A DNA stretch of 64,000 nt. Source: Escherichia phage a20. The position numbers and the translations under genes are program-made. The stretch lies in the sequence record OQ067374.1; one strand, written 5' to 3'. The notes below the pieces were generated by a model. The model searched no databases. It saw nothing but the letters and a program-made list of their open reading frames with translations, and was not told where the DNA came from. Shown in pieces: positions 947 through 51,813 of the stretch. Numbering within the stretch: position 1 is the first letter of the stretch; the number at the start of each line of letters is the position of its first letter.

Positions 947-1045
947 TTGTATTTTTCCATAGGCATCATTATATTTTACTCATGTTTAAAAGATAAGATG
1001 ATTATATACTAAGGGTTATACAGCATTTAAAACTTTAAATGGCTC

Positions 1046-1594: not shown

Positions 1595-1595
1595 T

Positions 1596-3211: not shown

Positions 3212-3253
3212 GTTTACCTCAATACAATTTATTATATACTCAATTCATAAAGC

Positions 3254-3493
3254 TTATTTGAATTTCTTAGCGATGTTGATATAACGTAAAGCTTCAGCAT
3301 CGATACTTCCAAGAACACTATGAAGAAATGCATCAGCGTAGTATTCCAATTGAACAGGTTCTTTAATCACTTTAGCCGCTTTGGTTCCAAACAGGCCCAT
3401 AAGGGCCTTTTTAAGAATTTGTTCATTAGTGTTCAGTTTCATAGTCAAAATCTCTTCATTAAGTTGGTGGTTAAAAGTTTTTCTAGAAATCAT
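3254..3493 (-). CDS. hypothetical small protein
   Basis: 79 aa ORF in operon context; no motif recognised. Confidence 0.4.
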   Translation of the reverse strand: MISRKTFNHQLNEEILTMKLNTNEQILKKALMGLFGTKAAKVIKEPVQLEYYADAFLHSVLGSIDAEALRYINIAKKFK

Positions 3494-4650: not shown

Positions 4651-4707
4651 TTTTTTTGCATCTCACGTTAATTGATGCGATGGTTTTTGCAGGTCTTACT
4701 TAAATTA

Positions 4708-5097
4708 TTATAGATTCGGTTTATATGATTTAAATGTTTCGAATTCGCCTTTATTCATAAGAGCTTTGAATTCGTCAGGACGCATAGCTTTGTCGTCGAT
4801 AATCCAATCATATACTGGTTTATGTGTTAGCAAATTATGGTACTTCAAACCAATGTTTTCCAAGTTCTGAATCAGACTTGGGAGAATGTCAATTGCTATA
4901 CGTCCAGGACCTACTGACTTCATACCGCGAGCAGTGTAAAGCGTTATGGTATGCCCTGCATCATACAGAGCATTAATAGCAGTCACCATTTCGACGTCTG
5001 GTTTGAAGTTCACGTAATCACGATTGTTATTCCACTCTGTTATACAATCATCGACGTCCACGCAAAGATGTAATGGTTTCATAGCAATATCCTTCAA
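4708..5097 (-). CDS. HAD-superfamily phosphatase-like protein
   Basis: 129 aa; LCVDVDDCIT resembles HAD motif I (DxDx); start may be the second Met at 5082. Its 5' end overlaps the 3' end of the homing endonuclease gene. Confidence 0.5.
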   Translation of the reverse strand: MKDIAMKPLHLCVDVDDCITEWNNNRDYVNFKPDVEMVTAINALYDAGHTITLYTARGMKSVGPGRIAIDILPSLIQNLENIGLKYHNLLTHKPVYDWIIDDKAMRPDEFKALMNKGEFETFKSYKPNL

Positions 5098-5809
5098 TAG
5101 AATTTTTAATATTATCAGCTATACGCTTTCTAGGAATACCCGTTTTCTTTTCAGCTATCCTAAGAGATTCATAGTAATTTTCGTTTATTTTAACAAATTT
5201 TTGAGACTTGTGAGCATTTTTGCTTTCGTCCTGATATCGATAATTAAGATATTTAGGCGATTTTACTCTCTTTTGAATCGTGGCAGAAGATATACCCAAA
5301 TCTTTAGCCGCTTCCCGACAGGATTCATAATATTTGCCATCTACATTAATCTTTAGACCATGTAATGCAGGTTTACCATACCTCCTGTGCTTTTCTTTAC
5401 CCCTAGCTATAGATTCAGCTGACAAAGTTTTACCCCATCTTGGGTTTTTATCACCAACTAAACGTCCTTTATTTGCCTTAGAAATTTTATCCTTGGACCT
5501 TTGGGATAACCCGTCAGAACCGCCTTCGCCACCAGTTTTAAGATTGTAATAATTTGGGTCTTTAACTATGTCTAATGTTATTAGAGCCTTTTCAGCTATT
5601 TTTAATTCTTCTCTCGAGCTATGGTAGGAAATGATTTCTTTAAGAAAATTTTCCTTCCCGTATTTCCTTTCAGCCTTTTTATATAATTTACCAGAACCTT
5701 TATATAAATCTAAAGGCTCGGCTTCTTCAGCCGAGTGCATTCCTAAATAAACTTTACCGTTTATAAGATTAGTAGTTTTGTAGAGATAATGTATCAAATT
5801 CGTTCCCAT
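5048..5809 (-). CDS. GIY-YIG homing endonuclease (seg-like)
   Basis: 253 aa; N-terminal IHYLYKTTNLINGKVYLGMHS is a GIY-YIG module; basic C-terminal DNA-binding region. Confidence 0.8.
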   Translation of the reverse strand: MGTNLIHYLYKTTNLINGKVYLGMHSAEEAEPLDLYKGSGKLYKKAERKYGKENFLKEIISYHSSREELKIAEKALITLDIVKDPNYYNLKTGGEGGSDGLSQRSKDKISKANKGRLVGDKNPRWGKTLSAESIARGKEKHRRYGKPALHGLKINVDGKYYESCREAAKDLGISSATIQKRVKSPKYLNYRYQDESKNAHKSQKFVKINENYYESLRIAEKKTGIPRKRIADNIKNSIEGYCYETITSLRGRR

Positions 5810-7479
5810 TGATGAGTGATATCGCCACCGATTGGACGATAGGAAACACCAGTTTCTTTATCAGTTAGTACCCATTTACCAGGATTTTTTGTAATCAGAG
5901 TAGCCGTTACAGGTTCTGCTACGTCATAACTAATAGAGCCGTCTTGAAGTACACGGCCCATATTACGTAATTGCTTAGTCAGAAGTTCCATACCTTTATA
6001 ATATGCGGCTACCGCTTTAAGTGGATTATTCTTGAAATAACCACCTAATGCAATCCAGATAATTGCCACTGCCAAATGATGATACTCGTTAAACGAACTC
6101 ATCTTTCCATATTTGTAAACTAATGGATTGATGTTAATAGTCACATTACAAGTTGTTTCATCAATAGTAAACTGTCCCCAGGTCGGATTAGCATTGAATT
6201 CATCATAACCTGAAACAGCATAAAGCACTTTAGCTTCATCATACAATTTTGGCCCGTAAATCTTGGTTTCGCCAAAATATCCACGAGGGTCGATAAACTT
6301 AACTTCGCCGTTATCAGTAATCATAGTATTACTGAAGTTCGGGTCACCATGAATAACAGAGTACTGTCCCTGAGAACGGTTATGATAACGAATAAGATGT
6401 TCTAAAGCTTGTTTCAGCATTGGCTTCAGACGTCCAATCTTAGTGTAGTTCACATGTGTGATTTTACCAAATGAATCAATCAATGGTTGAATGCTTTCAC
6501 AACGATCAATAACTTTCGTATAGAATTCTTTAGTGAAATCACGACGAACAGTTTCAGGACTTACAAAATAAGTGTCTGTGCTGAATTTCAGTGCATCTAA
6601 AATTGTATCAACAATTTGTGGACGAGCAAGACTTGATTTGGATTTAATATATTCAAATGCCGGCTTACCTTTAATGCGTTCCATTTCAAAGTTATTTTCA
6701 TTAACAGAAACTAACTGAGGGACTGAATCTGATTTCACTTTCAAATACCACGAAATCTCATCTTTCTGAAGAGCTCGGCCCTGTTCGGTTAATGCGAATT
6801 TAGTTACAGTTTCTTCACCGATTTCAACTGCATTAAAACTACGATTAAGTTCACGAACTTCATGAGCTTTTTCAAGTTTAGGCATATCACCTAAATCAAT
6901 TAGATTCATAAGCTCTGATTTATTGAATGCGCCGCTGTAAAGGAATTCTACGAAATCACGTCCTTTGCAGTATTCATGAATTTCTTCATCAGTAGAACCC
7001 ATATAGAATTCCCAGTCTTTGAACTGATAAATTCCTACAACATTACCACCTGTTGAACCTACGTTAGTGATATTTTCACCGTCGAAATTATATCGACATT
7101 CGTCGCCCTTAACATAGATTGCGTTAACATTCCAAGACCATGAACCAAAATCGGGAATAATATCACACCAGTTAACAATTACATTATGGCCGTCTAAATC
7201 TTTGTGTAATTTAGCAAGAGCATAAGCAGATCCATACGCTTCATCAACTGTACGAATAGTCACATTGAACCCTTCTTGCTCACAATAAGCTCGAACAGTT
7301 TCAGCAAATTTTGAATGAACTACTACAATAATTTCATCTGCGCCTAGGTCAGAATAAATTGTATACAAATTGCTCAGAATAGTGTCTTGTTTATAGTTAA
7401 CAAGCACCTTAGGAATATGGTGAGTAATTGGATATAAACGAGTTGCCAGTCCAGCACCAAGAATAACAGCTTTTTTCAT
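5794..7479 (-). CDS. bifunctional sugar-1-phosphate nucleotidyltransferase / APH-like sugar kinase
   Basis: 561 aa; N-terminus MKKAVILGAGLATRLYPITHHIPKVLV is the classic G-x-G-T-R-x-x-P nucleotidyltransferase signature; C-terminal VIHGDPNFSNTMI ... FIDPRG is the HGD-x4-N catalytic loop of APH/choline-kinase-type kinases. Confidence 0.75.
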   Translation of the reverse strand: MKKAVILGAGLATRLYPITHHIPKVLVNYKQDTILSNLYTIYSDLGADEIIVVVHSKFAETVRAYCEQEGFNVTIRTVDEAYGSAYALAKLHKDLDGHNVIVNWCDIIPDFGSWSWNVNAIYVKGDECRYNFDGENITNVGSTGGNVVGIYQFKDWEFYMGSTDEEIHEYCKGRDFVEFLYSGAFNKSELMNLIDLGDMPKLEKAHEVRELNRSFNAVEIGEETVTKFALTEQGRALQKDEISWYLKVKSDSVPQLVSVNENNFEMERIKGKPAFEYIKSKSSLARPQIVDTILDALKFSTDTYFVSPETVRRDFTKEFYTKVIDRCESIQPLIDSFGKITHVNYTKIGRLKPMLKQALEHLIRYHNRSQGQYSVIHGDPNFSNTMITDNGEVKFIDPRGYFGETKIYGPKLYDEAKVLYAVSGYDEFNANPTWGQFTIDETTCNVTININPLVYKYGKMSSFNEYHHLAVAIIWIALGGYFKNNPLKAVAAYYKGMELLTKQLRNMGRVLQDGSISYDVAEPVTATLITKNPGKWVLTDKETGVSYRPIGGDITHQWERI

Positions 7480-7663
7480 GTTGTGGTCCTCATTGGTAAG
7501 TAGGAGTATTGTACACTATTCTAGTTAAAGCATTCATACTTTGCTTGTAGTCCAATCATAATCCATCCAATTACAAGTGTTGGAATCATTACCGGAGCCG
7601 TTAAGCTCCAGTAGATAGTCATGACAAGCATCAATAGTAAAAGTCCTATTGCTATTGCTTTCA

Positions 7664-8296
7664 TTATTCGCCTCGTAACATGGCACCTAGTGCACCACCA
7701 GGGTGGAACTTAAGGAAATCATTAGAGGTAAATCCACGTTCAGACGAAAGGTTGATAGCAAACGTATCGATAAGCGCTAACAACAATGTAGTGGACATAG
7801 TCGGAGCCAGAGAATTCTCATCAACCTCTACTGCGATGCCTGTACAGAAAGAGTAATCAAAAAGGGCTTCATTTTCTTGTGGAATGTCTGGGTTACAATG
7901 CAACAGAATCTGTTTGACGTTCGGACGAATCATTTTAAGATGCTTAGCCACGCCTATCATTTCTTCAGTTTTACCAGAACGACTAATATGAATCAACACA
8001 TCATTAGGCGCAATGAATCCTGCATCACCGTGAGAATAATGCCCAGTGTTCAAGTACATACTCGGGATACCTAGTGAAGCAAAAGTCTCGGAAGCTTTAG
8101 TTGCGATATTAGCATTCTTACCAACACCTGTAATAATTACTCGGCTTTCATAATTACTAAGTCCCGGGCGTCGAAGAGTTTCTAGAATAGCATTATAACG
8201 AGCAGGGTTTTGACTAATTACTTTGGCCATAGCGGCCAAAGAAGAAGCTTGTTTTATGATTGCGTCAATAGCGATAGTAATAGGAGTAGTTTTCAT
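7664..8296 (-). CDS. SIS-domain sugar-phosphate isomerase (KdsD/KpsF-type, arabinose-5-phosphate isomerase-like, no CBS domains)
   Basis: 210 aa; VIITGVGKNANIATKASETFASLGIPS...HGDAGFIAPNDVLIHISRSGKTEE and LAPTMSTT...FHPGGALG align closely with the SIS domain of E. coli KdsD as I recall it. Confidence 0.75.
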   Translation of the reverse strand: MKTTPITIAIDAIIKQASSLAAMAKVISQNPARYNAILETLRRPGLSNYESRVIITGVGKNANIATKASETFASLGIPSMYLNTGHYSHGDAGFIAPNDVLIHISRSGKTEEMIGVAKHLKMIRPNVKQILLHCNPDIPQENEALFDYSFCTGIAVEVDENSLAPTMSTTLLLALIDTFAINLSSERGFTSNDFLKFHPGGALGAMLRGE

Positions 8297-8336
8297 ATTT
8301 CTCTCATTTAATTAGTTTACCGTCCATGGCATTATA

Positions 8337-11048
8337 TCAAAAATCGAACATATCGAACAGAGATGCTTTCTTCTCGTAATCGAGTTTCGCTGCTGATGTG
8401 AATCCTTCAAGTGGTTTAATAAATGTCTTCTCAAGGAGAACAGTGTAGTCCATCCAATGAAGTACGTCGTCTTTAATTAAATCTGTGATTTCAGTGCCAG
8501 AAGGCCATGCGATACATTTATCACCGAATGGGTTTCCTTCACGTAAAGGCAGAACATATACTTTTTCACCTTCTACAACTTGCGGTGCATCGATATTACC
8601 TTTGATAGCCCGGTTATATGTCAGAATTCCACGAATATGGAACGGACATTTGGGACCAGGGAATCCACCTACGTCATATTTAGCAATGTTATTCGCAGAA
8701 GATACCGACGCGATGCTAATATAATTCAATTGGCGGAATTCTTTTTCAAACTCTTTAAAATATTCTTGTAATGATTCTTCACCTTCTTGAAGCATACGAC
8801 GAATACATTCTTTAAGAGCTTTCTGTACTGCTTTAGGAGTCGAAGATTTCTGTGTTTCGAGACCCATGATTTTAAGCTTAGGTTCAGCGTATCTGGTTCC
8901 TTCCATATCCCACACGTTTAATGCATAACGTTTCTTACCAGTCCAGAATCCACCAATACCTTTAGAACCGAGCGGAGGACCAGCGATAGCTTCTCGGTCC
9001 ATGAACATCAAATGTTGCTTATTATTCATGTATTCGCACATTTCACGGAAACCTCTATCAATAGCAGGTTCCATACGTTCACGAGCGAACTTATCTAAGA
9101 AGTCTACCCAATGGTTGGTATCACGGAATTTAGATTCACCAACCTTATCGATAATTTTATCAGCAGATACGTAAATAGAGTCTGTATCACCATATAGAAC
9201 GAAAGCTTCACCTTCTGTACCACAAACTTCATTCAGATATTCATTAACTTTACGTTCAATCCACTGTAAAGCCATTTGACCAAATGTTGTGATTGCAGTA
9301 GCATTACGCAAATCATAATAACGGAACCAAACGTTGCCAAGTGCACCATAAAGTGAGTTGATAAGCAATTTACGGTTAATCTGTGCAGTCATACCTGCAA
9401 CTTCAGTACGTTGAGCTCTAAACAACATTTCATTAAGAGATTTAGCAGACAACTTTTTAATCTTTTCTTTAATCTCATCACTGAAGTCGAAACGATAATC
9501 AACATCTAATGGTTCGTCAACAGAAAGATTAGGATTATGCAATGCCTCTTTAATTATTTCACCATTACGTTGAGCTGCAAGCATGTAACCTTTATGTTCT
9601 TTACGTTGATTAAAGACCTTAGTGATTTCAGTTGGAACTACACCATCACGGTCTTTATAATACATCATGCCGTTAGGAGAGCAACTGTACACATCTGAAG
9701 GACGTTCAGCGATTGCGTTAATATAATCATGCAGTGGAGCTACTTTAAACGTTCCTGCTATTGTTTCCGGGCTAATATTCACTTGGCGAATAATACTTGG
9801 ATACAGAGATGTAAGGTCGAAACTCATTACATATTTGTATCGATTTGGAATAGGTTCCTTAACAAAAGCGCCAGGATAAGGTTGAACCGGGTGAGAACGA
9901 CCTTGTGGAATCACCTTGTTCTGCTCTTTAAGGCTATTAAAAATAATAGCATCCCATGTTTTAATTGGACTGAACACAGATTGAATCTGAATTTTAGCAT
10001 AATAACCCATGTCCAAGCTCAAGTTAATGAACTGGCGTTTAGCATCAATTTGCAATACACGATATACGTCGATGATGTTATAGCTTATATATCGTTGATG
10101 ATTACTTTCGCGAAGTTTAGAAATAGGACCGTCATATTTCAGTTTACCAACGTTCAATTCAAATTCTGAAATGTAATCCAGAGAATACGACGGTTGATTG
10201 GTAAAAGAGAATTTTTTGTAAAGGTCAATGTAATCAAGAACAGAGATACCGAACAATGTAATGATTTCACGAGAACCATACATGTTTTCGATAACTTTAA
10301 CACGAGTTTTACGATGCGGTGATAAACGTTTCGCAGTAGATTCGCCAAAAATATTCTTGATTCGGTTATACACATATGGAATATCAAATGACTCAACGTT
10401 CCATCCAGTCAAAATGACAGGAGTTTTCTGTTGCCAGAAGTTGAGATATTCCATCAACAATTCTTTTTCGTTATCGAACGGCATATAAATGATTTTATCG
10501 ATAATTTCAGATGGAACTTCATCACCGCCTTGTTCTTGAAGCTTAGCAGCGATTTCAATAGACCATTCTTCTACATTACCATACGGAGAATTCAATAGAT
10601 CAAATACGTAGAACCTGTCGTCAATTGAGTCATAATGGGTGATAGCATCAATCGGATGTTTTGCTTGTGACGGCTCAGGGAACCCATCCGGAGATGTTAC
10701 TTCGATGTCGAAGTTAGCCACACGAATTTTTGTATGGTCGTATTTGATTTCATAGTTATAAGTGTCAGACAAATACGCCAATTTGAAATCGTCCATGCCA
10801 AGTGCTTCAAGTCCGATATCTTCCATGCGTTTAATCCATTGGGAGGCATCACGCATATTAGCGAACAACTTACGAGTACACGGTTTACCGTAGATATCGA
10901 AATATTTCGTAGCCTGACTTTCTGGACAATGAGCAAACAGTGATGGTTTATATTCTACTTCACGAGTACGTTCACGGCCATTAGAATCGATGTAACGTTC
11001 AAAAATTGAATCACCAATCTGTTCAACCGTTAAGTAAAATTCTTTCAT
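8337..11048 (-). CDS. 43: DNA polymerase (family B)
   Basis: 903 aa; exonuclease FDIE and polymerase YGDTDS motifs; reads as RB69 gp43 from memory. Confidence 0.97.
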   Translation of the reverse strand: MKEFYLTVEQIGDSIFERYIDSNGRERTREVEYKPSLFAHCPESQATKYFDIYGKPCTRKLFANMRDASQWIKRMEDIGLEALGMDDFKLAYLSDTYNYEIKYDHTKIRVANFDIEVTSPDGFPEPSQAKHPIDAITHYDSIDDRFYVFDLLNSPYGNVEEWSIEIAAKLQEQGGDEVPSEIIDKIIYMPFDNEKELLMEYLNFWQQKTPVILTGWNVESFDIPYVYNRIKNIFGESTAKRLSPHRKTRVKVIENMYGSREIITLFGISVLDYIDLYKKFSFTNQPSYSLDYISEFELNVGKLKYDGPISKLRESNHQRYISYNIIDVYRVLQIDAKRQFINLSLDMGYYAKIQIQSVFSPIKTWDAIIFNSLKEQNKVIPQGRSHPVQPYPGAFVKEPIPNRYKYVMSFDLTSLYPSIIRQVNISPETIAGTFKVAPLHDYINAIAERPSDVYSCSPNGMMYYKDRDGVVPTEITKVFNQRKEHKGYMLAAQRNGEIIKEALHNPNLSVDEPLDVDYRFDFSDEIKEKIKKLSAKSLNEMLFRAQRTEVAGMTAQINRKLLINSLYGALGNVWFRYYDLRNATAITTFGQMALQWIERKVNEYLNEVCGTEGEAFVLYGDTDSIYVSADKIIDKVGESKFRDTNHWVDFLDKFARERMEPAIDRGFREMCEYMNNKQHLMFMDREAIAGPPLGSKGIGGFWTGKKRYALNVWDMEGTRYAEPKLKIMGLETQKSSTPKAVQKALKECIRRMLQEGEESLQEYFKEFEKEFRQLNYISIASVSSANNIAKYDVGGFPGPKCPFHIRGILTYNRAIKGNIDAPQVVEGEKVYVLPLREGNPFGDKCIAWPSGTEITDLIKDDVLHWMDYTVLLEKTFIKPLEGFTSAAKLDYEKKASLFDMFDF

Positions 11049-14530: not shown

Positions 14531-15247
14531 ATGAATTATAACTCAATATACGAAAAGCTTATCACCAATGCTAAATCAAGAAGTTTAGATGGTTATACAG
14601 AACGTCATCACATTATACCACAATGTTTAGGTGGAAGTGATGATGCTTTAAACTTAGTAGACTTAACACCGGAAGAACATTATTTGGCACATCAACTGTT
14701 GGTAAAAATCCATCCAGATAATGCCTCTTTAATATATGCCGCTCGTATGATGACCATATCATCTCCTAAAGCAGATAGAAGCAAAAACAAATTATTTGGA
14801 TGGCTTCGACGTAAGAATCAAGAAGTTCAAAAGAATAAAGAATTCACTGCTGAAACCCGTAAGAAAATGTCCGAGTCTGCAAAAAATAAACCAAAGATTA
14901 CCTGTCCACATTGTGGTTTAACTGGAACTGAAGGAAACATGCGACGTTGGCATTTTGATAATTGTAAACAAGGTCCAACGCCTAAAATAGTAAAACTTGA
15001 TCAAGAAACAAAAGATAAAATAATTAAAACCATGGCCACGAAAATTTGGAAAGAAGATTCTTGCCCGTTTTGTGGCTTAACTACTAAGTTATCGGCGTTA
15101 AAGCCACATATAAAATTCTGTAAATCAAATCCTAACAGAAAGAAAAAAGAGGACAAGAAAATTAAATGTCCTCATTGCGATAAAATAGGGATCCCTGCTA
15201 ATATGCATCGTTGGCATTTCGATAATTGTAAATATAAGCCTCATTAA
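14531..15247 (+). CDS. HNH homing endonuclease (mob-like) with C-terminal zinc-finger repeats
   Basis: 238 aa; ERHHIIPQCLGGSDD...EEHYLAH HNH core; three C-terminal CPHCG...HFDNC units; transcribed opposite to flanking genes. Confidence 0.8.
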   Translation: MNYNSIYEKLITNAKSRSLDGYTERHHIIPQCLGGSDDALNLVDLTPEEHYLAHQLLVKIHPDNASLIYAARMMTISSPKADRSKNKLFGWLRRKNQEVQKNKEFTAETRKKMSESAKNKPKITCPHCGLTGTEGNMRRWHFDNCKQGPTPKIVKLDQETKDKIIKTMATKIWKEDSCPFCGLTTKLSALKPHIKFCKSNPNRKKKEDKKIKCPHCDKIGIPANMHRWHFDNCKYKPH

Positions 15248-16932
15248 GAGGCTTTCATTACAGTAAATCGTCCAACTTTGCTCATTTGAAGATGTTGTCC
15301 ATAAGCTTGTGGGTCATGGTCTCTGTGACTAATTATAAACACGTTTGCATCGGTTAGAGAGTTAAGAATTGTTGAAATAGCTTTAATACCTTCAGAATCA
15401 GTCGCGGAATCCATGACTTCGTCCATAATTAATGTATTGATTCTAACGCCAGAGACCTTTTCAGCGATATCTCGCCATGTAAACAACAATGCGATATCGA
15501 TACGTGCCTTTTCACCTTGACTAAACGAAGCATAACTGAATTCTTCACGTCCACGTGATTTTATAGATTCATTGAATTCTTCGTCAATAGAAAACACATA
15601 ATCAGCTTCCATGATTTTAAGATAATGGTTAATCTGCTTGTTGAACAGAGGCACATATTTTTTAATGATAGCACCTTTAATACCAGAATCTTTTAACATA
15701 TCTGTGATAATACCGCGATGGTATTTTTCAAGAACGATATCCGATTTTGTTTTAATGATTTTATCAAGTTCTTTTTGAAGCAAAGCTATCTCATCGGCAT
15801 GGTCGATAAATTCCGCCGAGGCTTGTTCTATTGCAGCTTTAACTTTCTTAGCTTTATCAATAGTGGCAATCATTGCTTGTTTCTTGGTACGAATATCAGA
15901 TGCAAGGTCCTGTTTAGTCTTAACATTAGCTCTATATTCGTCCACTAGGACACTCAGATTATCTCTGTGACATGTAAGTTGCTCGAATGAGTGATTACAT
16001 TCGTGAAGCTTATCGGTAATCTTAGAGACAATAGGATCACCCTGGTGCAACTGTGATGCACAAGTAGGACATGTACCGCCATCATGATACATCTTAATAA
16101 CTTTGTTATATGAGTCAATTTTAGATTTAATCAAGAATGCTTCTTGTCCTATCTTGTTGAATGCCTCAGTAGGGTCTTCGTCAAGAACGATATTAAGTAG
16201 ACGCTCGTTAGCTTCTTCGATTTCTGCTTTTAATGAACGAGCTTCTTTGGCTAGGTCGTCATACATATTCTGTAGACGCGCTACATTATCACCAGATAAT
16301 TTCTTTTGGCGTTCGATATTCTCGTTATAAATCTTAATTTGTTGGATAACACCATCTTTCTTGGCATCGAGAACTTGTCCCTGGGAATTAAGTTCTCGAA
16401 CTTGAGACTTATTGATTTTATCCATTTCAGCGAGTGTGCCGACTTCTAAAAGGTCTTCGACAAGTTTTCTACGAGCAGGGGTGCTAAGAGCCATGAAAGG
16501 GGTATACCCTGCCGTCCCAAGCACAACGATTTGTTTAAAAGACGCGTATGACATTCCGATGCTACGTTCAAATTCTTCTTGGAAGTCACGACTGCTGGCA
16601 GATTCATCAAGACGAACACCGTCAACGGAGATTTCGAAAATATTGGGCTTTTGGCCACGTCTAATGAAGTATTTTTTATCATCGAATTCCATCCAAAGCT
16701 CAACTAAGAGCTCTTTCTTGTTCGTGCTATTAATGATTTGTCCTTTCTTAACATCACGAAATGGTTTACCGAAAAGTCCGAAAGTAATGGCTTCTAACAT
16801 CGTAGATTTACCACCGCCATTTTTACCAGTGATTAATGTCTTTTGGACTTTATCTAATTGGATATCAATAGGATTCCCACCTACCGACATGATGTTTTGA
16901 TAACGAACACGATTTAATTTAAATGATTTCAT
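15244..16932 (-). CDS. 46: recombination endonuclease subunit (Rad50/SbcC-like)
   Basis: 562 aa; Walker A GKNGGGKST; coiled-coil middle; synteny with 47. Confidence 0.92.
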   Translation of the reverse strand: MKSFKLNRVRYQNIMSVGGNPIDIQLDKVQKTLITGKNGGGKSTMLEAITFGLFGKPFRDVKKGQIINSTNKKELLVELWMEFDDKKYFIRRGQKPNIFEISVDGVRLDESASSRDFQEEFERSIGMSYASFKQIVVLGTAGYTPFMALSTPARRKLVEDLLEVGTLAEMDKINKSQVRELNSQGQVLDAKKDGVIQQIKIYNENIERQKKLSGDNVARLQNMYDDLAKEARSLKAEIEEANERLLNIVLDEDPTEAFNKIGQEAFLIKSKIDSYNKVIKMYHDGGTCPTCASQLHQGDPIVSKITDKLHECNHSFEQLTCHRDNLSVLVDEYRANVKTKQDLASDIRTKKQAMIATIDKAKKVKAAIEQASAEFIDHADEIALLQKELDKIIKTKSDIVLEKYHRGIITDMLKDSGIKGAIIKKYVPLFNKQINHYLKIMEADYVFSIDEEFNESIKSRGREEFSYASFSQGEKARIDIALLFTWRDIAEKVSGVRINTLIMDEVMDSATDSEGIKAISTILNSLTDANVFIISHRDHDPQAYGQHLQMSKVGRFTVMKAS

Positions 16933-17183
16933 ATGTATTCTCTTCGAATGAAGTCCTCTACATATTTTAACATGTCATCCCTATCAGCAAAATATTCATC
17001 TAGTTCTGCATACATAACAACACCTGGTGCGTACTCACAGGTAACATACATTGTTCCAAAGAAACGAGGAGTTGATTCCTCGTAATTCTCAGTCCATTCA
17101 ACGATACCAATATAACCGTCACCAATACTAAATTCATGACGATGGATTTCATAATCAGTCTTCGTCATTATACGCATCCTCAA
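16929..17183 (-). CDS. hypothetical protein
   Basis: 84 aa ORF between 47 and 46. Confidence 0.5.
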   Translation of the reverse strand: MRMRIMTKTDYEIHRHEFSIGDGYIGIVEWTENYEESTPRFFGTMYVTCEYAPGVVMYAELDEYFADRDDMLKYVEDFIRREYI

Positions 17184-17412
17184 TACACGCTTCAGCCATT
17201 TTAAGAATAGAGCCAGGAGTATCGTTGTCCATTATATTAAAGCTAAATTCAATAGCCCAGTCGGTGCAGACATGAACTGCTTTAACTTCATTGCCTTCAA
17301 CGCGTAATGGCTCAATCCAATACTTGATAGTGTTCTCGAATCCATCATCATCTTTAACGTCCATTTCAACTTCAAGCCTGAGTCCAGCATTGTTAAATTC
17401 ATCTAAAGTCAT
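17155..17412 (-). CDS. hypothetical protein
   Basis: 85 aa acidic ORF between 47 and 46. Confidence 0.5.
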   Translation of the reverse strand: MTLDEFNNAGLRLEVEMDVKDDDGFENTIKYWIEPLRVEGNEVKAVHVCTDWAIEFSFNIMDNDTPGSILKMAEACIEDAYNDED

Positions 17413-18428
17413 TGTGTTGCCTCAATATAAAGTTCGTTGGAATATTTGACCAGCGCTTCTCTGTCTTCGTCTGAGATATCTGGAATCGCGTCAATATATT
17501 CTTTAATGATATCTTGAAGTGATTTAATCTCGATTTCCTGGTCGTCATCAGATTCAACACTGTTATCAACTTTAGAAACCATACGAAGAGAGTGAACTAC
17601 TTTTTCAAGTTCAGATTCAAACTTAGTCAACTCTGAATCAATTTCTGATACTATAACACGTACAGCTAGATTAGTATAATCAGAATAATTGATTTTGCCT
17701 TTAAACGGATAAGTGATTCGTCGATGCCATGTTGTTTCATTAGGAATAAATTCCATACGTTCAACATCAGTGTCAAATACCCAGAATCCGCGCGGGTCGT
17801 TCTCATCACCTGCAGTAAGGGTCCATGGTGTCCCAATATATTTGACGTTAGCAGCTTCAGAGATTGTGTGGAAGTGGCCAGACCAGACTTGTTTATAAGT
17901 CTTTAAGAAATCAGGTTCAAGCCCATGAGACTTCATCCCTTTATAGAAATAAAAGCCATTCAGTTCCCAGTGCCCAACACAATACGCTGCAGAAGAAGTC
18001 TTGATGTGCTCTAAGATTTCACCTGTATTTTCTTCACACATCCATGGAACGATATCAATCAGACATCCGTCAAAATCTACAGTAGTTGGATGCTCGTAAA
18101 TAGTAAAGTTTTCAAATTGAGTTAACAATTCAGAAACAGTGTTAGGTGTTATTGTATTCTTAAACGCCATGTCATGGTTTCCTATCGTGACATGAACGTG
18201 AATGCCTGCTTTAGAAATCATATCAACGATTTCACGATTGAATTCCATTGTACGATGTGTTATTGCTTTACGGACGTCGAACCAATCACCGTACTGAATC
18301 CAAGTTTTAATCCCGTGTTTCTTAGAGTATTCAATTGCTTGACGAATACCATCACGTTGAATATCTTGAACCCATGGGTCGTCTTGTTTGACTCCGATAT
18401 GGAAGTCGCCTAAGTGCAAAATTTTCAT
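17409..18428 (-). CDS. 47: recombination endonuclease subunit (Mre11/SbcD-like)
   Basis: 339 aa; MKILHLGDFHIG metallophosphatase motif. Confidence 0.92.
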   Translation of the reverse strand: MKILHLGDFHIGVKQDDPWVQDIQRDGIRQAIEYSKKHGIKTWIQYGDWFDVRKAITHRTMEFNREIVDMISKAGIHVHVTIGNHDMAFKNTITPNTVSELLTQFENFTIYEHPTTVDFDGCLIDIVPWMCEENTGEILEHIKTSSAAYCVGHWELNGFYFYKGMKSHGLEPDFLKTYKQVWSGHFHTISEAANVKYIGTPWTLTAGDENDPRGFWVFDTDVERMEFIPNETTWHRRITYPFKGKINYSDYTNLAVRVIVSEIDSELTKFESELEKVVHSLRMVSKVDNSVESDDDQEIEIKSLQDIIKEYIDAIPDISDEDREALVKYSNELYIEATQ

Positions 18429-18472
18429 ATTATTTCCTCATTAGTTAATTCATTTTATCATCCGTTTATAAA

Positions 18473-18498
18473 GCAAAAAAGGAACTCCGAAGAGTTCC
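18473..18498 (-). terminator. rho-independent terminator-like hairpin
   Basis: GGAACTC-CGAA-GAGTTCC (plus 18481-18498) followed on the minus strand by a T-run (plus AAAAAA 18475-18480), just upstream of gene 47. Confidence 0.5.
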
Positions 18499-18671
18499 TA
18501 TCCACATAGTACACCGTACAGAGGCTCATTTGAACTTTTAAATCGAATGGGCTTGTACGTAATAGTTCCTTCGGCTTTAGCTTTATCATAAGACTCTTTA
18601 AAACGTCTCGTTCTTTCTGCTTTGCCTTTACGGATTTTATCGAAATTTTCAGAAGTCGGGATGTTCGTCAT
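18498..18671 (-). CDS. hypothetical small protein (not on ORF track)
   Basis: About 57 codons from ATG at 18671 with GAGG upstream; ends at the terminator hairpin. Hand translation, low confidence. Confidence 0.3.
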   Translation of the reverse strand: MTNIPTSENFDKIRKGKAERTRRFKESYDKAKAEGTITYKPIRFKSSNEPLYGVLCG

Positions 18672-18710
18672 GCATAAGCACCTCTCAGAAAATGCCTAAA
18701 TCAATTTCTC

Positions 18711-18932
18711 TCATCGTTTCCACCATTTCTTAACTTGAAATGAATCGACCCACACGAGTTGTTTTGGGTCTGCCTTTACAATAGGCGGACAAATTTCTGT
18801 AATAGAACCGTCGTGATATTCCTTTTCAGAAATTTTAACACAAAGAGGACCTCCCAATTTAAGGGTGAACCCTGCGTTCAGCTTCAGACGTTTAAACTTT
18901 GTTTGAACTAGCGCCATTAATGATGTCCTCAA
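18711..18932 (-). CDS. hypothetical protein
   Basis: 73 aa ORF in the 55-47 interval, where T4 carries alpha-gt. Confidence 0.4.
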   Translation of the reverse strand: MRTSLMALVQTKFKRLKLNAGFTLKLGGPLCVKISEKEYHDGSITEICPPIVKADPKQLVWVDSFQVKKWWKR

Positions 18933-19215
18933 TAGCCTGACGAGTAGTAACCCACTGGATTTTAATTAACTTGTCATTATATGGTTGTCGTAGAATATCC
19001 CGAGATTTCTTAATAGCATATTCGTAAGCTTCGAAGTTGTTTTGAATTGCTGCTTCTTGAGCATGAGCATAAAGACGGTTTAGTTCAAAACGATTCTTTT
19101 TAAGAATCTTTTCGGATTTTTTACGTGCTTCAGCTTCATTTTTCTTTTGGATTTCTTGTAGCATTTTAGCTACTGCATCTTCTGCTTCTTTATTTTCAAT
19201 AATCTCGGTAGTCAT
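18892..19215 (-). CDS. hypothetical coiled-coil protein
   Basis: 107 aa, charged and helical. Confidence 0.45.
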   Translation of the reverse strand: MTTEIIENKEAEDAVAKMLQEIQKKNEAEARKKSEKILKKNRFELNRLYAHAQEAAIQNNFEAYEYAIKKSRDILRQPYNDKLIKIQWVTTRQAIEDIINGASSNKV

Positions 19216-19216
19216 A

Positions 19217-19432
19217 TTATCTCATTAAATTAAAATAAAAACGTCCATCCTCTTCAATACAGAACTCATACTCAACCGGAGTCCCATTTATCGAAAATGA
19301 CACGTCATGTGGGTTCAAAGGGTCGATGTCAAAATTAATTTTAAATTCACGACCCAACAGTTTTACCAAATAAGGGATTGCTTCGTCAAAAGGTTCTTCT
19401 AAGTAGTTAGAGATGTCAATTGTCATCCTCAT
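19217..19432 (-). CDS. hypothetical protein
   Basis: Track ORF 19217..19510 overlaps gene 55; shortened to the internal Met at 19432. Confidence 0.35.
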
Positions 19433-19973
19433 ATAAAAAATCCAAACTAGGCGAATCGCTAACAACTTCCTTCTTTTCAGCCCCAGGAGCTTTATAAGCG
19501 GATTCTTCATAATGCGTCATTTTATCGTAGATGTCTTGAATAAACGTTTCATCTACCAACGCTACCATATCATCGTCATGACTGTCGTAGACATTATGAA
19601 CGAAGTAACTATATTTCTTTGCAACTTCCTTACGTTCTTTTTTGATACGTTGGACAAAAGCATTAAAACAAGCTCGAGTTATGTATGCATGTGGGTTATT
19701 GTACTTAGTTTCGTCGAAATTATGAAGTCCCTTAATAGAGGCTTCAATCCCATCTGCAATCATCTCCTGCTTCCAAGACTGGGTATATCCTGAAAAGTTG
19801 AAACGTTTGGACAGGCCTTCGGCGATAAGCATAATTGCTAAACCGATGGTATCATTCTGACGAATAATTTTGTTTGGGTCTTTATTATTTAAGAGCTCCT
19901 TTTTCCACTCGATTATAGCGGCGAGAAGCTCTTTATTATTCACATAGTTATTTTTAGGTTTTTGTTCAGTCAT
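19416..19973 (-). CDS. 55: late-transcription sigma factor
   Basis: 185 aa; near-identical over long stretches to T4 gp55 as I recall it. Confidence 0.93.
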
Positions 19974-20045
19974 AAGTACCTCTTAGCTCAATTCATAGGT
20001 CTATTATATCATAATATTTAGAGACCTATCTTAAAGCACGAGATA

Positions 20046-20315
20046 CTATCGGAGCAAACAATAAGCCTGAAACACTTTTTCCATTAAACGTTTGAACTCA
20101 TGGATATCGATATAAAGCTCAGTAAGACCGGCATTATAAAGAAAATCTAAAAAGTTCTCATGTGTTTCGTTATAGTCGCCTTCGTTTAATTGAGATACAT
20201 GAGTTTCCCAAAAACCAACACCTTTAACGAATGGAAAATACGTGACTTTCATGTATTCGTCAACATAAAATTCGCCCAGCTTTTCTTCAGTTATACTGAT
20301 TCGAGTTAATTTCAT
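20046..20315 (-). CDS. hypothetical protein
   Basis: 89 aa ORF. Confidence 0.5.
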   Translation of the reverse strand: MKLTRISITEEKLGEFYVDEYMKVTYFPFVKGVGFWETHVSQLNEGDYNETHENFLDFLYNAGLTELYIDIHEFKRLMEKVFQAYCLLR

Positions 20316-20539
20316 TCTAGTTCCTTTGCTGCTTCAAGAGCAGCATCCAGCGAATCAAATTGGTCAACGAAATCAATATTCAACGCATCGTCAACCGTAG
20401 CATATAACCACCATTGTTTGAATTCATATTCTAGGATAAATCCAGGCCCTTCAATCTGAGGAAGACCTAGGCTATTTGTACCAACTTCGTAACCAGCTAG
20501 ACGCAGGTCATTAATCAAAGTTTCTGTTAATACGCTCAT
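20312..20539 (-). CDS. hypothetical acidic protein
   Basis: 75 aa ORF, overlapping stop/start with neighbours. Confidence 0.5.
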   Translation of the reverse strand: MSVLTETLINDLRLAGYEVGTNSLGLPQIEGPGFILEYEFKQWWLYATVDDALNIDFVDQFDSLDAALEAAKELE

Positions 20540-20868
20540 TTTACCGCCTTAACAATTTTCAGGTCAACGAATTTTTTCTTACGTTGATTTTTCATACGAC
20601 GGATAGTCTTTTCAGAGATTTCATGTTTCTGATAAGCTTTAGATTCAACACCAAATGCAGTAACGTCAAATTCAGAAAGAATATATTGTACTAGAATTTC
20701 ACGAATAGAATTACGTCCAATTTTCTGGTCGTGTTTTTGCATGATTTCATAAAGACGGAATTCCCACGCGTCAAGAACTTGAGGAGTAACAATATTGCCG
20801 GATTCCAGAAGAGCAACAACTTTATCGAAAGCGAAAGAATTAACTACGTTTTTGATTTTAGTAGACAT
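20536..20868 (-). CDS. hypothetical protein
   Basis: Track ORF 20536..20916; start set at the internal ATG at 20868, which has GAGGAAAATAAT upstream. Confidence 0.5.
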   Translation of the reverse strand: MSTKIKNVVNSFAFDKVVALLESGNIVTPQVLDAWEFRLYEIMQKHDQKIGRNSIREILVQYILSEFDVTAFGVESKAYQKHEISEKTIRRMKNQRKKKFVDLKIVKAVK

Positions 20869-20934
20869 ATTATTTTCCTCGGTTATTTTATTATCCAACG
20901 AGAGAATTATACTCATCTCTCAAGAGTTTGTATA

Positions 20935-21174
20935 CTATTTTTTAAGCATGAAAAGTAAGTAATTTGTATCACGTGGAGTAATATCAACACCCATATCAAA
21001 GATGCCTTTATAGATTGGGTATTTGTTTTCGGTTGTATCGAAGCTGAAACTATTTCCATCACAACTAACAGTAATAGCATCTGTTAAAATGTCATACTCA
21101 ATCCTAACAATTGAATCCCCAATTTTAACGTCGAGGTGTTTTTTGAATTTGATAAAATCTAATTCTTGGGCCAT
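20935..21174 (-). CDS. hypothetical protein
   Basis: 79 aa ORF. Confidence 0.45.
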   Translation of the reverse strand: MAQELDFIKFKKHLDVKIGDSIVRIEYDILTDAITVSCDGNSFSFDTTENKYPIYKGIFDMGVDITPRDTNYLLFMLKK

Positions 21175-27199: not shown

Positions 27200-27504
27200 T
27201 ATAATGTTCTCTCAAATTTGTGGAAGCATTTACGGCATTTCAATTTCAAGTTATCAGTGGTCCAGTTAACCAGTTGGACTTGGATAGTTCCACATTCTGG
27301 GCATGGATGTTTTGCTGCCGATTTGGCAGCATTTTCACGTCGTTCAACCATTTTCATGATTTCGTTCCATGCCGGAGGAACGAACTCTTCTTCACCGTGG
27401 ATTTTATCTCGCTGAACAAATTCAATCTTTGAACTATCATCAATAAACTTAACCAAGTCATGATTAGTGCTCATATCAATATCCTCTAAAAGACGTAGTT
27501 TCAT
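27199..27504 (-). CDS. hypothetical Zn-ribbon protein
   Basis: 101 aa; CPECG...CRKC pair. Confidence 0.5.
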   Translation of the reverse strand: MKLRLLEDIDMSTNHDLVKFIDDSSKIEFVQRDKIHGEEEFVPPAWNEIMKMVERRENAAKSAAKHPCPECGTIQVQLVNWTTDNLKLKCRKCFHKFERTL

Positions 27505-28454
27505 TATAAAACCTCAATGGCATTTCGTAAACCATCCGCTTTCGCATTCAGAGCTTTTAACGATTTAGTTTGTTCTGCAATCTGGGCTTCGACTTCTTTC
27601 AGACGAGATTTGAGATATTCGCGTTCTTCTCTTAAGTTATCAACTTTTTCTGCTTTAGGCTCTTTAATAGGCTTAGGTTTATACGTATTAGGGTTCTTCA
27701 GTTTAATTTGAATTCGAGAACTGAATAACATTGAACCGTTATCTTCGGTTTCACTGTGTATTTCTACCACGTCCATGATTCTTAACATCATGCGAAGTTT
27801 ATAAGACAGCGAACGAACGGTTTTATTGTGCTTCTTAATTTCTTCAGCTTTCATGGTGCCGAGATTACGTGAGTAGTAATAAGGAACCTGAATATCAATT
27901 GATAATGATGCGGTACCATTACCGGTTGGTTTGAACACTGCAGTAACCCAATCTTTAGCATGAACTGTATTTGTACGATCATCGCCGCCTGTGAATAATT
28001 TACGAGAATGTTTAAAAAGCATATTCACTTGGTTATTGAATTCACAAGCAAATTTATCAGCAAATTTAGTTTCAGGAATGGTAGTTAACCAATCAGCCAA
28101 ATGAGTCTTTTTAACATCATTAACAATAGTGAATTCAACCAAATCGGTTTTAGATGTCACAGATTTAATAAAGCTCGGCTTCATAAAGTTTTTAATGTTA
28201 TCGCGAGCTACAGTAGAAGATAATAAACGAGAACGTTTGAACCATTGAAGCAACGTCCCTAACGAATGAGAATACGCATTTTGAGTATCTTTACAGATAT
28301 GATTTTCTTGGCCTATGTATGTACCAAAATCGCGAAGAATACCACTTACTACATCTCGGTGTGGAACATCAAATCCTAGTGCACCAGAAGCACGTTGGGC
28401 ATGAACGTTAGCGATAAGACCTGCAAAGTATTCAATGTAATGTGAACGTGTCAT
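27504..28454 (-). CDS. hypothetical protein with C-terminal coiled coil
   Basis: 316 aa; promoter cassette directly upstream. Confidence 0.55.
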   Translation of the reverse strand: MTRSHYIEYFAGLIANVHAQRASGALGFDVPHRDVVSGILRDFGTYIGQENHICKDTQNAYSHSLGTLLQWFKRSRLLSSTVARDNIKNFMKPSFIKSVTSKTDLVEFTIVNDVKKTHLADWLTTIPETKFADKFACEFNNQVNMLFKHSRKLFTGGDDRTNTVHAKDWVTAVFKPTGNGTASLSIDIQVPYYYSRNLGTMKAEEIKKHNKTVRSLSYKLRMMLRIMDVVEIHSETEDNGSMLFSSRIQIKLKNPNTYKPKPIKEPKAEKVDNLREEREYLKSRLKEVEAQIAEQTKSLKALNAKADGLRNAIEVL

Positions 28455-29502: not shown

Positions 29503-29532
29503 ATTATACTCCAACCATCCTTGGTTGTACAT
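29503..29532 (-). promoter_or_regulatory. early-promoter-like cassette with spacer hairpin (PeSL-like)
   Basis: Near-identical copy of the 28483-28512 element (TATAAT at plus 29503-29508, same CAACCA-TCCT-TGGTTG hairpin, -35 variant ATGTAC). Confidence 0.45.
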
Positions 29533-30527
29533 CATTCCTTAAGAAGTTTTACTACTTGAATAAGATTAGCTCGTTCTGTTTTATTTTTACCGTTTAAGCC
29601 TGCTAATCGTGAGATTTCATCGTCAGTCTGTTGAATAGTTACATTAAGTTCGTTAATCAAAGCTTCAAAGTATTTGATTTGCTCAGCATGTTTTGATTCA
29701 AATTTCTGAACCGGAATAACGTCTTGATTCAGTTCATCAATAAGGTCTTTAAGAGCATCTTCTTGGTTGATATCATATTCAACTTCTTTTATTTCTTCAA
29801 CGAGCTCGTCTTTATATCTAACGTCTTTTAGTCCTGGAGCTGGTCCTAAAATCTCTTCTTTAAGAGTACAAACATATCCAATACGATATCCAGTGCCGTC
29901 TCGCTTGATATCAACTTCGTCGATAAATCCACAATGTTTAAGACCAGAGCCGATTAGGTTAAAATATCCTTGACGTCGTCCTTCAAACGTTACACGAACT
30001 ACTAAGACGGTTTTGCCACTGACCTTTTGAAGCTCACATTTATAAAAGTCTGTTGAACCTGAATAACATGGATGAGTTTTAAAGTTCATCTGACGATCTA
30101 GACCCATTTGTAAGCGTGCTGATACGGCCATAAAACGTGTTTGGTTCTCGTTAAGATGAGCAACAATCCATTTCAAAGGCATTTTACACTGTTCACGACC
30201 GAACAAATCAGTACGTCCTAGATTACGCAGGATGTTGTTAGAGTTAATCATCGACAGAACGTTAAGTTTATTCAGCGCGCTGAAGATTCCATCAGCCATT
30301 GATTTTCCGTAACCTTTACACGCTTTAATAAGCGCTCGCGGCAGATTAGTATAGATTTCAGACGGCATATGAAAATCAAATTTACTAGTCAGTAATTGAT
30401 GAACTTGGATAGCAATTTGCTCATAATTAAGTGCTCTGCGATCATTATGGTCTTTAAACCACACTTTAATCTGTGAAGCACATAAACCGTTAATTTCATG
30501 TTTTACCGCATCAGATGTAATGCTCAT
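29532..30527 (-). CDS. hypothetical protein with C-terminal coiled coil
   Basis: 331 aa. Confidence 0.55.
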   Translation of the reverse strand: MSITSDAVKHEINGLCASQIKVWFKDHNDRRALNYEQIAIQVHQLLTSKFDFHMPSEIYTNLPRALIKACKGYGKSMADGIFSALNKLNVLSMINSNNILRNLGRTDLFGREQCKMPLKWIVAHLNENQTRFMAVSARLQMGLDRQMNFKTHPCYSGSTDFYKCELQKVSGKTVLVVRVTFEGRRQGYFNLIGSGLKHCGFIDEVDIKRDGTGYRIGYVCTLKEEILGPAPGLKDVRYKDELVEEIKEVEYDINQEDALKDLIDELNQDVIPVQKFESKHAEQIKYFEALINELNVTIQQTDDEISRLAGLNGKNKTERANLIQVVKLLKE

Positions 30528-31601: not shown

Positions 31602-32603
31602 TTATTTCAGTAAAGTTACTTCAGAGATTTCCTCCCAACCATCTTTATCAGTTGAAATAAAATCCGCTACATAAAGAGCCGTACGTAATGATACATTGCG
31701 AAGACGAGATACGTTAGCCTTCATCCAGGACAATGCTTTATACGTTTCTGCATCCGTCAGGCCACGTTTCTGCATCATGTCAGTAGATAATATTACATCT
31801 TCAACTCGAACCATAATCTCTTCATTAGAGTGTACTCCAAGGTCCAAATACACTGAACGAGATACTAAAGCTTGAAGGTGCGGAGCAAGTTTCGAACCGC
31901 GTTCTAACTCTTTATCGATATCAACGTTTGTAATGAAAACGATAGTACCTTCAAACTCAAATTCTTTATCAATACCCTTATCATCGAGATAAGATGACGC
32001 AGTGCTCCAACAAACTTTGCGTTTATCTCCGGTATCTAATGCTGCTTTAAGAAGGTTCAAGATGTCCATATCTGAGAATACATCAACGTCGTCGATTAAG
32101 AGAACGCTGTATGCATCACGGTTGAGCCAAAGTTGTTCGTAAAGGCCAATACCAGAGATTTTACCATTAATGCTTTTGTATTTGATGAAACCATTATCAT
32201 TAGCATTATTAAGTGCTTTATCCAGAGAATACGTCTTACCAATACCAGCTGCACCTGAAATAATGAGTGAACGAATTTTGCCATCGATAATGCCGTTCGT
32301 CATCATGTTCATTACTTTAAAGCGTTTGTTGATACGAGTTTTCATATCTTCAGTGCTTTCAACAACTGCAACTGGTGATGTCTCAACTCCTTCCATTACG
32401 ATGTCTGATTTGAAGACCCATACTCCACGTTCAGAACCATCAATCATAACGAAAATTTTACCATCACCTAAGTGGGAACATTCAGGATTAAGCTTTGCCG
32501 GGAACCAGGTCTTTGTGGCAACATAAGAACCAGAGATTTCGTTATTACGATAGATACCTTTTTTGATTTGAACGTTGAACATTTTATTCTCCAATTTACT
32601 CAT
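31602..32603 (-). CDS. AAA-type P-loop ATPase
   Basis: 333 aa; Walker A GAAGIGKT and Walker B LLIDDVD. Confidence 0.6.
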   Translation of the reverse strand: MSKLENKMFNVQIKKGIYRNNEISGSYVATKTWFPAKLNPECSHLGDGKIFVMIDGSERGVWVFKSDIVMEGVETSPVAVVESTEDMKTRINKRFKVMNMMTNGIIDGKIRSLIISGAAGIGKTYSLDKALNNANDNGFIKYKSINGKISGIGLYEQLWLNRDAYSVLLIDDVDVFSDMDILNLLKAALDTGDKRKVCWSTASSYLDDKGIDKEFEFEGTIVFITNVDIDKELERGSKLAPHLQALVSRSVYLDLGVHSNEEIMVRVEDVILSTDMMQKRGLTDAETYKALSWMKANVSRLRNVSLRTALYVADFISTDKDGWEEISEVTLLK

Positions 32604-35223: not shown

Positions 35224-35232
35224 AATAATTCC

Positions 35233-35775: not shown

Positions 35776-35999
35776 TTAAAGTTTCAACAAAATTCACCAA
35801 ATCATTCTGACGAGCATCAACCTGATTTCTATAAAAATTAAATAAGATCCATTTCACAGGTCATTTTACCATACTCGCTTCAATAAGATTCATTACACCA
35901 TTTACCATGTTATACGTAAACATCGGATAATTGTATTGTACTACAACATAAGCGATAAGCAAAAGTTTCATTTTGTTCTCCATTTGTTTTGGTAGGACT

Positions 36000-50714: not shown

Positions 50715-50723
50715 TTGTTTTGA

Positions 50724-50760: not shown

Positions 50761-50763
50761 TAC

Positions 50764-51051: not shown

Positions 51052-51085
51052 TTTATTTCCTTGAGGTCGTTTATTTGATAGGATG

Positions 51086-51115: not shown

Positions 51116-51127
51116 TGTTTTGTGAAA

Positions 51128-51813
<686 letters not shown>

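Follow-up and report, generated by a model that had tools for sequence, protein, structure and literature searches.

In phage T4 the gene for alpha-glucosyltransferase (a-gt) is located between genes 47 and 55, where the annotated gene order is 47, 47.1, a-gt, mobB, a-gt.2, a-gt.3, a-gt.4, a-gt.5, 55. The interval between genes 47 and 55 of Escherichia phage a20 is described here from a window of 64 kb, i.e. the whole stretch of DNA that was analyzed (64,000 nucleotides (nt), sequence record OQ067374.1), out of a genome of about 169 kb. An initial annotation of this DNA had given the T4 arrangement correctly and reported that a-gt is missing from the a20 interval. Absence of a-gt and of the beta-glucosyltransferase gene (b-gt) from RB69-type phages was already published in 2018. 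Thomas et al. (2018; PMC6024577) found by BlastP that RB69 is without a homologue of a-gt, b-gt or the beta-alpha-glucosyltransferase gene (ba-gt), and that RB69 DNA bears arabinose in place of glucose. They named the modification ara-hmC, for arabinose on 5-hydroxymethylcytosine (hmC), and proposed ORF003c as a GT-B arabinosyltransferase.

The pathway that replaces glucosylation was described in 2025–2026. Lee et al. (2026; PMC13326640) report that mono- and di-arabinosyl-5-hydroxycytosine fully replace cytosine, which was shown for RB69. In near-identical phages the first arabinose is bound to the 5-oxygen as an ether and is followed by another one. For RB69 the mono- and di-arabinosyl-5-hydroxy-deoxycytidine precursor ions are reported at m/z 376.13 and 508.18, and the base fragment that remains after loss of the sugar has an m/z of 128.05, that of hydroxycytosine. 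RB69 gp48 is a flavin-dependent enzyme that takes oxygen from O2 to make 5-hydroxy-deoxycytidine monophosphate (5-hydroxy-dCMP), and gp159, a deoxynucleoside monophosphate (dNMP) kinase, phosphorylates it. The proteins gp55, gp52:53 and gp51 are assigned to synthesis of uridine diphosphate (UDP)-arabinofuranose, which in experiments on near-identical phages starts from ribulose-5-phosphate, and gp46:47 and gp3 are proposed as the first and second arabinosyltransferase, respectively (PMC13326640). For the AfhE and AfhF proteins of phage HY126 the same paper refers to He et al. 2026 (Nat Chem Biol), and for Bas46, Bas47 and others to Mahler et al. 2025 (Cell Host Microbe). According to the 2025–2026 literature the carrier base should be called 5-hydroxycytosine and not hydroxymethylcytosine.

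The a20 window very probably belongs to a phage which has no hmC glucosyltransferase and uses the arabinosyl-5-hydroxycytosine hypermodification, with the 47–55 interval representing an empty a-gt site. No hmC glucosyltransferase would be needed because a different cytosine hypermodification is in use.

Window positions 15000–21000 were compared by megablast with 50,697 phage records. About 150 records match at 95%–99% identity and all are RB69-like T-even phages of the genus Mosigvirus; NHEP10 displays 98.4% identity with full coverage, and RB69 and HY126 each display 98.5%. The region of the modification genes, 900–8400, is 98%–99% identical to the RB69/HY126/NHEP10 group. By these similarities the window is assigned to Mosigvirus (RB69-type T-even phages). 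NHEP10, whose complete 168,710-bp genome was pieced together from four parts, was used as the whole-genome relative. The first 54 kb of the window are on the minus strand in T4 order, i.e. uvsX ... 43, regA, 62, 44, 45, rpbA, 45.2, 46, 46.1, 46.2, 47, continuing with a-gt.2–a-gt.5, 55, 55.x, nrdH, nrdG, nrdD, 49 and so on.

The lower boundary of the interval is gene 47 (17409–18428, minus strand), which encodes an SbcD/Mre11-like nuclease subunit with a Pfam Metallophos domain; it displays 76% identity over 339 amino acids (aa) to T4 gp47 and is annotated in RB69. The upper boundary is gene 55 (19416–19973, minus strand), the late sigma factor, with a matching open reading frame (ORF) annotated in RB69, NHEP10 and T4. 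Four orthologues of T4 genes are found between them, also on the minus strand. The a-gt.2 orthologue (18498–18671, 57 aa) is 74% identical to T4 a-gt.2 and has a DUF5486 domain (Pfam PF17588, E-value = 1e-26). The a-gt.3 orthologue (18711–18917) has 68 aa from its ATG, 71% identity to T4 a-gt.3 and an RB69 annotation of 207 nt, although the mechanical ORF from a TTG extends to 18932. The a-gt.4 orthologue (18892–19215, 58% identity to T4 a-gt.4) shows a DUF2654 domain (PF10849, E-value = 1e-27) and, at 107 aa, is the longest ORF of the interval. The a-gt.5 orthologue (19217–19432, about 71 aa, DUF5491, PF17595) is 47% identical to T4 a-gt.5 from an internal Met, and its start overlaps the end of gene 55.

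From the start of gene 47 at 18428 to the end of gene 55 at 19416 the ORF list for both strands has a maximum of 107 aa, and the plus strand of the interval has no ORF longer than 50 aa. The initial annotation, which gave only small ORFs of at most 107 aa, is thus accurate, the small ORFs being the four a-gt.2–a-gt.5 orthologues. Of the genes that T4 has in this interval exactly three are lacking, namely 47.1, a-gt and mobB, which encodes a homing endonuclease. A spacer of 69 bp lies between the a-gt.2 stop codon and the gene 47 start codon; it contains a hairpin, a promoter-like site and the ribosome-binding region. Neither this spacer nor the plus strand of the interval shows any remnant of a-gt. 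Judged by gene order, the interval represents the "empty" (a-gt-less) form of the T4 a-gt site. The layout is common to the approximately 150 phage records at 95%–99% identity and is therefore not an assembly artefact.

Homologues of the T-even glucosyltransferases were searched for with T4 a-gt (400 aa), T4 b-gt (351 aa) and T2 ba-gt (280 aa) as queries, using tblastn and phmmer on six-frame ORFs. No significant homologue of T4 a-gt was detected in the window by either program; the best E-values are 0.012–0.014, with 29 bits, over 69–85 residues in unrelated genes. The window also shows no homologue of T4 b-gt or T2 ba-gt, where the best tblastn E-values are 5–6. In the complete NHEP10 genome there is no match to a-gt, b-gt, ba-gt or 47.1 at E ≤ 0.01, whereas gp47, the positive control of this search, gives E = 0. 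The tblastn matches of T4 a-gt at 32217–32456 and 45972–46151, which reach 29 bits and an E-value of about 0.01 with a small database and a word size of 2, are chance matches. They were dismissed because they span fewer than 85 residues and fall within ORFs that have T4 orthologues or belong to other PHROG families. Three long ORFs without a Pfam family, at 27504–28454, 29532–30527 and 53293–54114, were considered as hidden transferases, but these are orthologues of nrdC.3, nrdC.6 and gp2 (DNA end protector) shared with T4. Thus, as far as homology searches can tell, no T-even glucosyltransferase homologue is present in the window or in a whole genome from the same species group.

The window and T4 also differ between gene 43 and uvsX. 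T4 has imm.1, imm, 42, b-gt and segA in this region; the window instead has a block of genes that is absent from T4. The gene that corresponds to gene 42 is on the minus strand at 2495–3211 and encodes a thymidylate-synthase homologue with a Pfam Thymidylat_synt domain. It is the homologue of RB69 gp48, the published flavin-dependent 5-hydroxy-dCMP synthase (PMC13326640). The sequence is identical at 233 of 238 residues (97.9%) to PDB entries 9iqc/9ir2, a solved 238-aa structure, and displays only 25% identity to T4 gp42, the dCMP hydroxymethylase. PDB entry 9iqz carries the label "phage HY126 glycosyltransferase", and from these neighbouring codes 9iqc/9ir2 are taken to be the HY126 5-hydroxy-dCMP synthase of He et al. 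Identity with 9iqc places the a20 protein among the ThyA-family synthases, and the enzyme activity itself is that described in PMC13326640.

Directly downstream of this gene, at 1596–2495 on the minus strand, is the homologue of RB69 gp46:47, a 299-aa protein with a predicted GT-B fold and the proposed first DNA arabinosyltransferase. It has no Pfam family at E ≤ 0.01, no sequence match among PDB chains with either the single sequence or a 40-sequence profile, and no detectable BLASTP similarity to a-gt and b-gt. The 138 database homologues are all unnamed and are found in T4-like phages of Escherichia, Edwardsiella, Yersinia, Acinetobacter, Serratia and Providencia; those of Acinetobacter phages have 44%–56% identity. 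An AlphaFold2 model made from a 40-sequence alignment has a predicted local distance difference test score (pLDDT) of 94.1 and a predicted template modelling score (pTM) of 0.88. Sequence searches having failed, it was fold comparison alone that revealed the GT-B fold. According to the model, the product of 1596–2495 is a glycosyltransferase (GT) of this fold.

A GT-B fold protein is thus encoded beside the ThyA homologue, as is expected of the first transferase, and T4 b-gt is likewise downstream of gene 42. We infer that the 299-aa enzyme carries out the first arabinose transfer. The initial annotation stated that b-gt is also absent. This is correct with respect to sequence homologues, however a GT-B fold gene occupies the b-gt-like neighbourhood. 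It also named a glucosyltransferase gene elsewhere in the genome as evidence that would count against its reading; none with T-even homology is found in the window or in NHEP10, but a GT-B glycosyltransferase is present, so this statement must refer to homologues of the T-even enzymes.

Further genes of the block, on the minus strand as well, fit the published pathway. The first gene after uvsX (1046–1594) encodes a thymidylate-kinase-like nucleotide kinase, the RB69 gp45 homologue (PHROG 761, thymidylate kinase, E-value = 4e-45; annotated in RB69 and NRG-P0074), with a role proposed in PMC13326640. The genes for UDP-arabinofuranose synthesis are all present. A HAD-type phosphatase (4708–5082; homologue of RB69 gp51 and HY126 AfhF) shows 97% identity to RB69 gp51 and belongs to PHROG 1238, its function being taken from PMC13326640. 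A bifunctional sugar-1-phosphate nucleotidyltransferase/kinase of 561 aa (5794–7479; homologue of RB69 gp52:53 and HY126 AfhE) displays a Pfam NTP_transferase domain at its N-terminus and weak kinase-family matches at residues 308–409. The arabinose-5-phosphate isomerase (7664–8296; RB69 gp55 homologue) has a Pfam SIS domain and is annotated in RB69, NRG-P0074 and NHEP10. Away from the block, at 51818–52552 on the minus strand, is the dNMP kinase for modified dCMP (gene 1, RB69 gp159 homologue; PHROG 139, E-value = 1e-59), where activity of gp159 on 5-hydroxy-dCMP is from PMC13326640.

All ORFs of the cluster are full length in the window, including two which are split in the RB69 reference. 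The pairs ORF046c/047c and ORF052c/053c of that reference each correspond to one uninterrupted ORF in the window, of 299 and 561 aa, respectively. RB69 gp46:47 is reported to be a single ORF that only a sequencing error divides in the reference (PMC13326640), and Thomas et al. corrected the sequencing error that divided the 561-aa gene into ORF053c and ORF052c (PMC6024577); the intact a20 ORFs agree with these corrections. Those arabinosylation genes that fall within the window are all intact.

Two additional members of the block are a small ORF (3254–3493) and a gene for a peptidase-U32-like protein of 386 aa (3490–4650, minus strand; RB69 gp50 homologue; Pfam PF01136, E-value = 7e-11), which is conserved within the modification cluster. 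The gp50-type protein is listed as "sugar or heterocycle reductase" in Table 1 of PMC13326640, where this is a suggestion.

The window does not contain the homologue of ORF003c/gp3, the proposed second transferase, whose locus (rIIA.1 to gene 39) is located beyond it. This homologue shows 98.9% identity in NHEP10 and at least 95% in 155 phage records.

A pathway for a20 may be proposed from these data. The thymidylate-synthase homologue (2495–3211) would produce 5-hydroxy-dCMP, which would be phosphorylated by phage kinases (51818–52552, probably also 1046–1594) and incorporated by the polymerase. Ribulose-5-phosphate would be converted to UDP-arabinofuranose via the isomerase (7664–8296), the kinase/uridylyltransferase (5794–7479) and the HAD phosphatase (4708–5082). 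The GT-B glycosyltransferase (1596–2495) would then add the first arabinose to the 5-hydroxyl, and a second GT-B enzyme, the RB69 ORF003c homologue located at rIIA.1–gene 39 in relatives, would add the second arabinose. What the DNA described here shows is its gene content and synteny, the lack of any glucosyltransferase homologue, the predicted GT-B fold of the 299-aa protein and a ThyA homologue that is nearly identical to a solved structure. The base chemistry and the enzyme activities would carry over from literature on phages that are 98%–99% identical, and a20 DNA is expected to carry the same arabinosyl-5-hydroxycytosine modification.

Several points weigh against this interpretation. 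The chemistry is known from the DNA of relatives and not from that of a20 itself. A GIY-YIG gene inserted at 5048–5809 overlaps both of its neighbours and could affect their expression. The second glycosyltransferase and the deoxycytidine triphosphatase (dCTPase) would be encoded in the part of the a20 genome outside the 64 kb covered. In addition, arabinose transfer by the gp46:47-type enzyme is as yet only proposed, individual GTs of phage DLP3 are reported by Lee et al. as inactive on 5-hydroxycytosine DNA, and the first arabinose may still be added either on DNA or on the nucleotide (all PMC13326640).

Other explanations of the missing a-gt must be considered. The phage may still glucosylate hmC with a glucosyltransferase whose gene has moved outside of the interval or of the window. 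The window does cover only 64 kb of about 169 kb, and T-even modification genes occupy several loci, e.g. b-gt near gene 42 and ORF003c near rIIA. However, the a-gt, b-gt and ba-gt homologues are missing from complete NHEP10 as well as from the window, the gene 42 counterpart is close to the solved thymidylate-synthase homologue (97.9%) and not to T4 dCMP hydroxymethylase (25%), and RB69 DNA has arabinose and no glucose (PMC6024577). A relocated glucosyltransferase gene is thus very unlikely. Arabinose attached to 5-hydroxymethylcytosine, as first proposed in 2018, is also unlikely, if slightly less so. The name ara-hmC was given by PMC6024577 and the public annotation of the gene reads "similar to dCMP hydroxymethylase", but the base was found to be 5-hydroxycytosine by liquid chromatography–tandem mass spectrometry, nuclear magnetic resonance and 18O2 labelling and by expressing RB69 gp48 in vivo (PMC13326640), and the window enzyme is the one that matches the solved structure at 233/238 residues. 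The structural work of 2026 replaces the earlier ara-hmC assignment.

It is most improbable of all that the absence of a-gt is a deletion or assembly artefact of this particular sequence, or that the cytosine derivative is left unglycosylated. The sole hint of a possible disturbance is the GIY-YIG insertion in the sugar-activation cluster. The same gene order in about 150 independent records at 95%–99% identity argues against an artefact, as do the full length cluster ORFs, including the two split in the RB69 reference, and a spacer that is a well-formed terminator/promoter unit. The initial annotation had read the absence of a-gt and b-gt as consistent with a non-glucose DNA modification, which is supported by the arabinose pathway genes in the window and by the RB69 chemistry (PMC6024577, PMC13326640).

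The spacer between a-gt.2 and gene 47 displays an intrinsic-terminator-like hairpin, AGGAACTC-TTCG-GAGTTCCT followed by a T-run (18480–18499, minus strand), that begins within the a-gt.2 stop codon and has an 8-bp stem, a UUCG loop and a TTTTTT tail. Folded as RNA it has a free energy of −13.9 kcal/mol (z = −3.9), and 0 of 200 shuffled sequences fold as well. With a GC-rich hairpin and a U-run 3′ of a stop codon, 18499–18480 is a predicted intrinsic (rho-independent) terminator; the terminator of the initial annotation is real as a sequence feature. A site that resembles a MotA-box middle promoter is located next to it upstream of gene 47 (18452–18475, minus strand), with TGCTTTA at 18475–18469, 11 nt, and TAAAAT at 18457–18452. 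Middle (MotA-dependent) promoters of T4 have the consensus of a MotA box, TGCTTtA, about 11–13 bp upstream of a TAnnnT −10 element. By its match to this consensus, 18475–18452 is presumably a T4-type middle promoter.

Hairpin and promoter-like site form a unit of about 45 bp, i.e. the UUCG hairpin, then the motif GCTTTATA, then the −10 element 11–12 nt downstream. The unit after a-gt.2 aligns with two T4 sites, the first between a-gt.2 and mobB and the second between a-gt and 47.1, at 16690–16740 and 14590–14630 of the compared T4 piece. There are thus two copies in T4, which bracket mobB and a-gt, and one in the window (18452–18499). The two T4 copies suggest a cassette bounded by short repeats. 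One copy here versus two in T4 fits gain or loss of such a cassette by recombination between the repeats. We tentatively consider, as a possibility that is more doubtful than not, that the terminator/promoter repeat served as the recombination substrate by which a glucosyltransferase cassette, with its homing endonuclease, was gained or lost among T-even phages, the 47–55 interval being the preserved empty site.

Three putative mobile endonuclease genes are present elsewhere in the window. The GIY-YIG gene (5048–5809, minus strand) encodes a 253-aa GIY-YIG/NUMOD (seg-like) homing endonuclease and lies between the genes for the HAD phosphatase and the 561-aa enzyme; it shares 16 nt with the end of one neighbour and about 35 nt with the start of the other. 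Neither RB69 nor NHEP10 has it, and the stretch is fully covered by only three records (NRG-P0074, BEU50 and JM17). A gene for a 238-aa HNH homing endonuclease (14531–15247) lies between 45.2 and gene 46 in the opposite, plus-strand orientation. The protein shows 44% identity to T4 MobB in its N-terminal half, and the gene is absent from RB69 but present in NHEP10 and ST0. An ORF of 260 aa (33968–34750, minus strand), flanked by the nrdC.11 homologue and a gene for a membrane protein, has 61% identity to T4 MobB in its first 66 residues and a weak Pfam HNH match. The stretch 33988–34759 has no counterpart in NHEP10 or in the annotation of RB69, and by these similarities the ORF is a third mobile-endonuclease insertion in the window.

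Identity to NHEP10 is uneven along the window. The late-gene end (50715–63998, dNMP kinase through baseplate genes 5–8) shows merely 89.9%; the rest is mostly at 95%–98%, with one block of about 1.1 kb (34759–35836) at 87%. This pattern indicates mosaicism among Mosigvirus genomes.

Which restriction, CRISPR and glycosylase defences a T-even phage evades or sets off depends on the sugar on its DNA, so that recognition of the arabinose type helps in phage therapy and in prediction of host range. Three points are added here: the window itself holds the replacement pathway, a GT-B gene occupies the T4 b-gt neighbourhood, and the carrier base is to be named 5-hydroxycytosine and not hmC.

In comparison with hmC glucosylation in T4, both systems move a sugar to a 5-substituted cytosine, both obtain the base from a thymidylate-synthase homologue encoded beside a GT-B gene between gene 43 and uvsX, and a-gt.2–a-gt.5 are conserved. 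The system of the window differs in its predicted base, 5-hydroxycytosine, in its predicted sugar, arabinofuranose, and in having no sequence homologue of the alpha- or beta-glucosyltransferase. T4 draws on host UDP-glucose, whereas the window phage encodes its own nucleotide-sugar pathway. The beta-alpha-glucosyltransferase of T2/T6, which adds a second glucose to glucosyl-hmC, is similar in that a second transferase extends the first sugar, as proposed for RB69 gp3; however T2 ba-gt has no homologue in the window or NHEP10. Acinetobacter phage DLP3, with tri-arabinosyl-5-hydroxycytosine, has a homologous cluster of kinase, GT, ThyA homologue, HAD, bifunctional enzyme and isomerase (PMC13326640), but two more GTs adjoin the cluster and there is a third arabinose, whereas the second GT of Mosigvirus is at a distant locus. 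The Mosigvirus system of RB69, HY126 and Bas46–47 is the closest. Apart from three extra homing-endonuclease-like genes in the window with respect to RB69 (5048–5809, 14531–15247 and 33968–34750), a20 shares with it 98%–99% nucleotide identity, the gene order of the uvsX–43 and 47–55 regions, and the ThyA homologue (97.9% to 9iqc), the 299-aa GT-B protein, the 561-aa enzyme, the HAD phosphatase and the isomerase.

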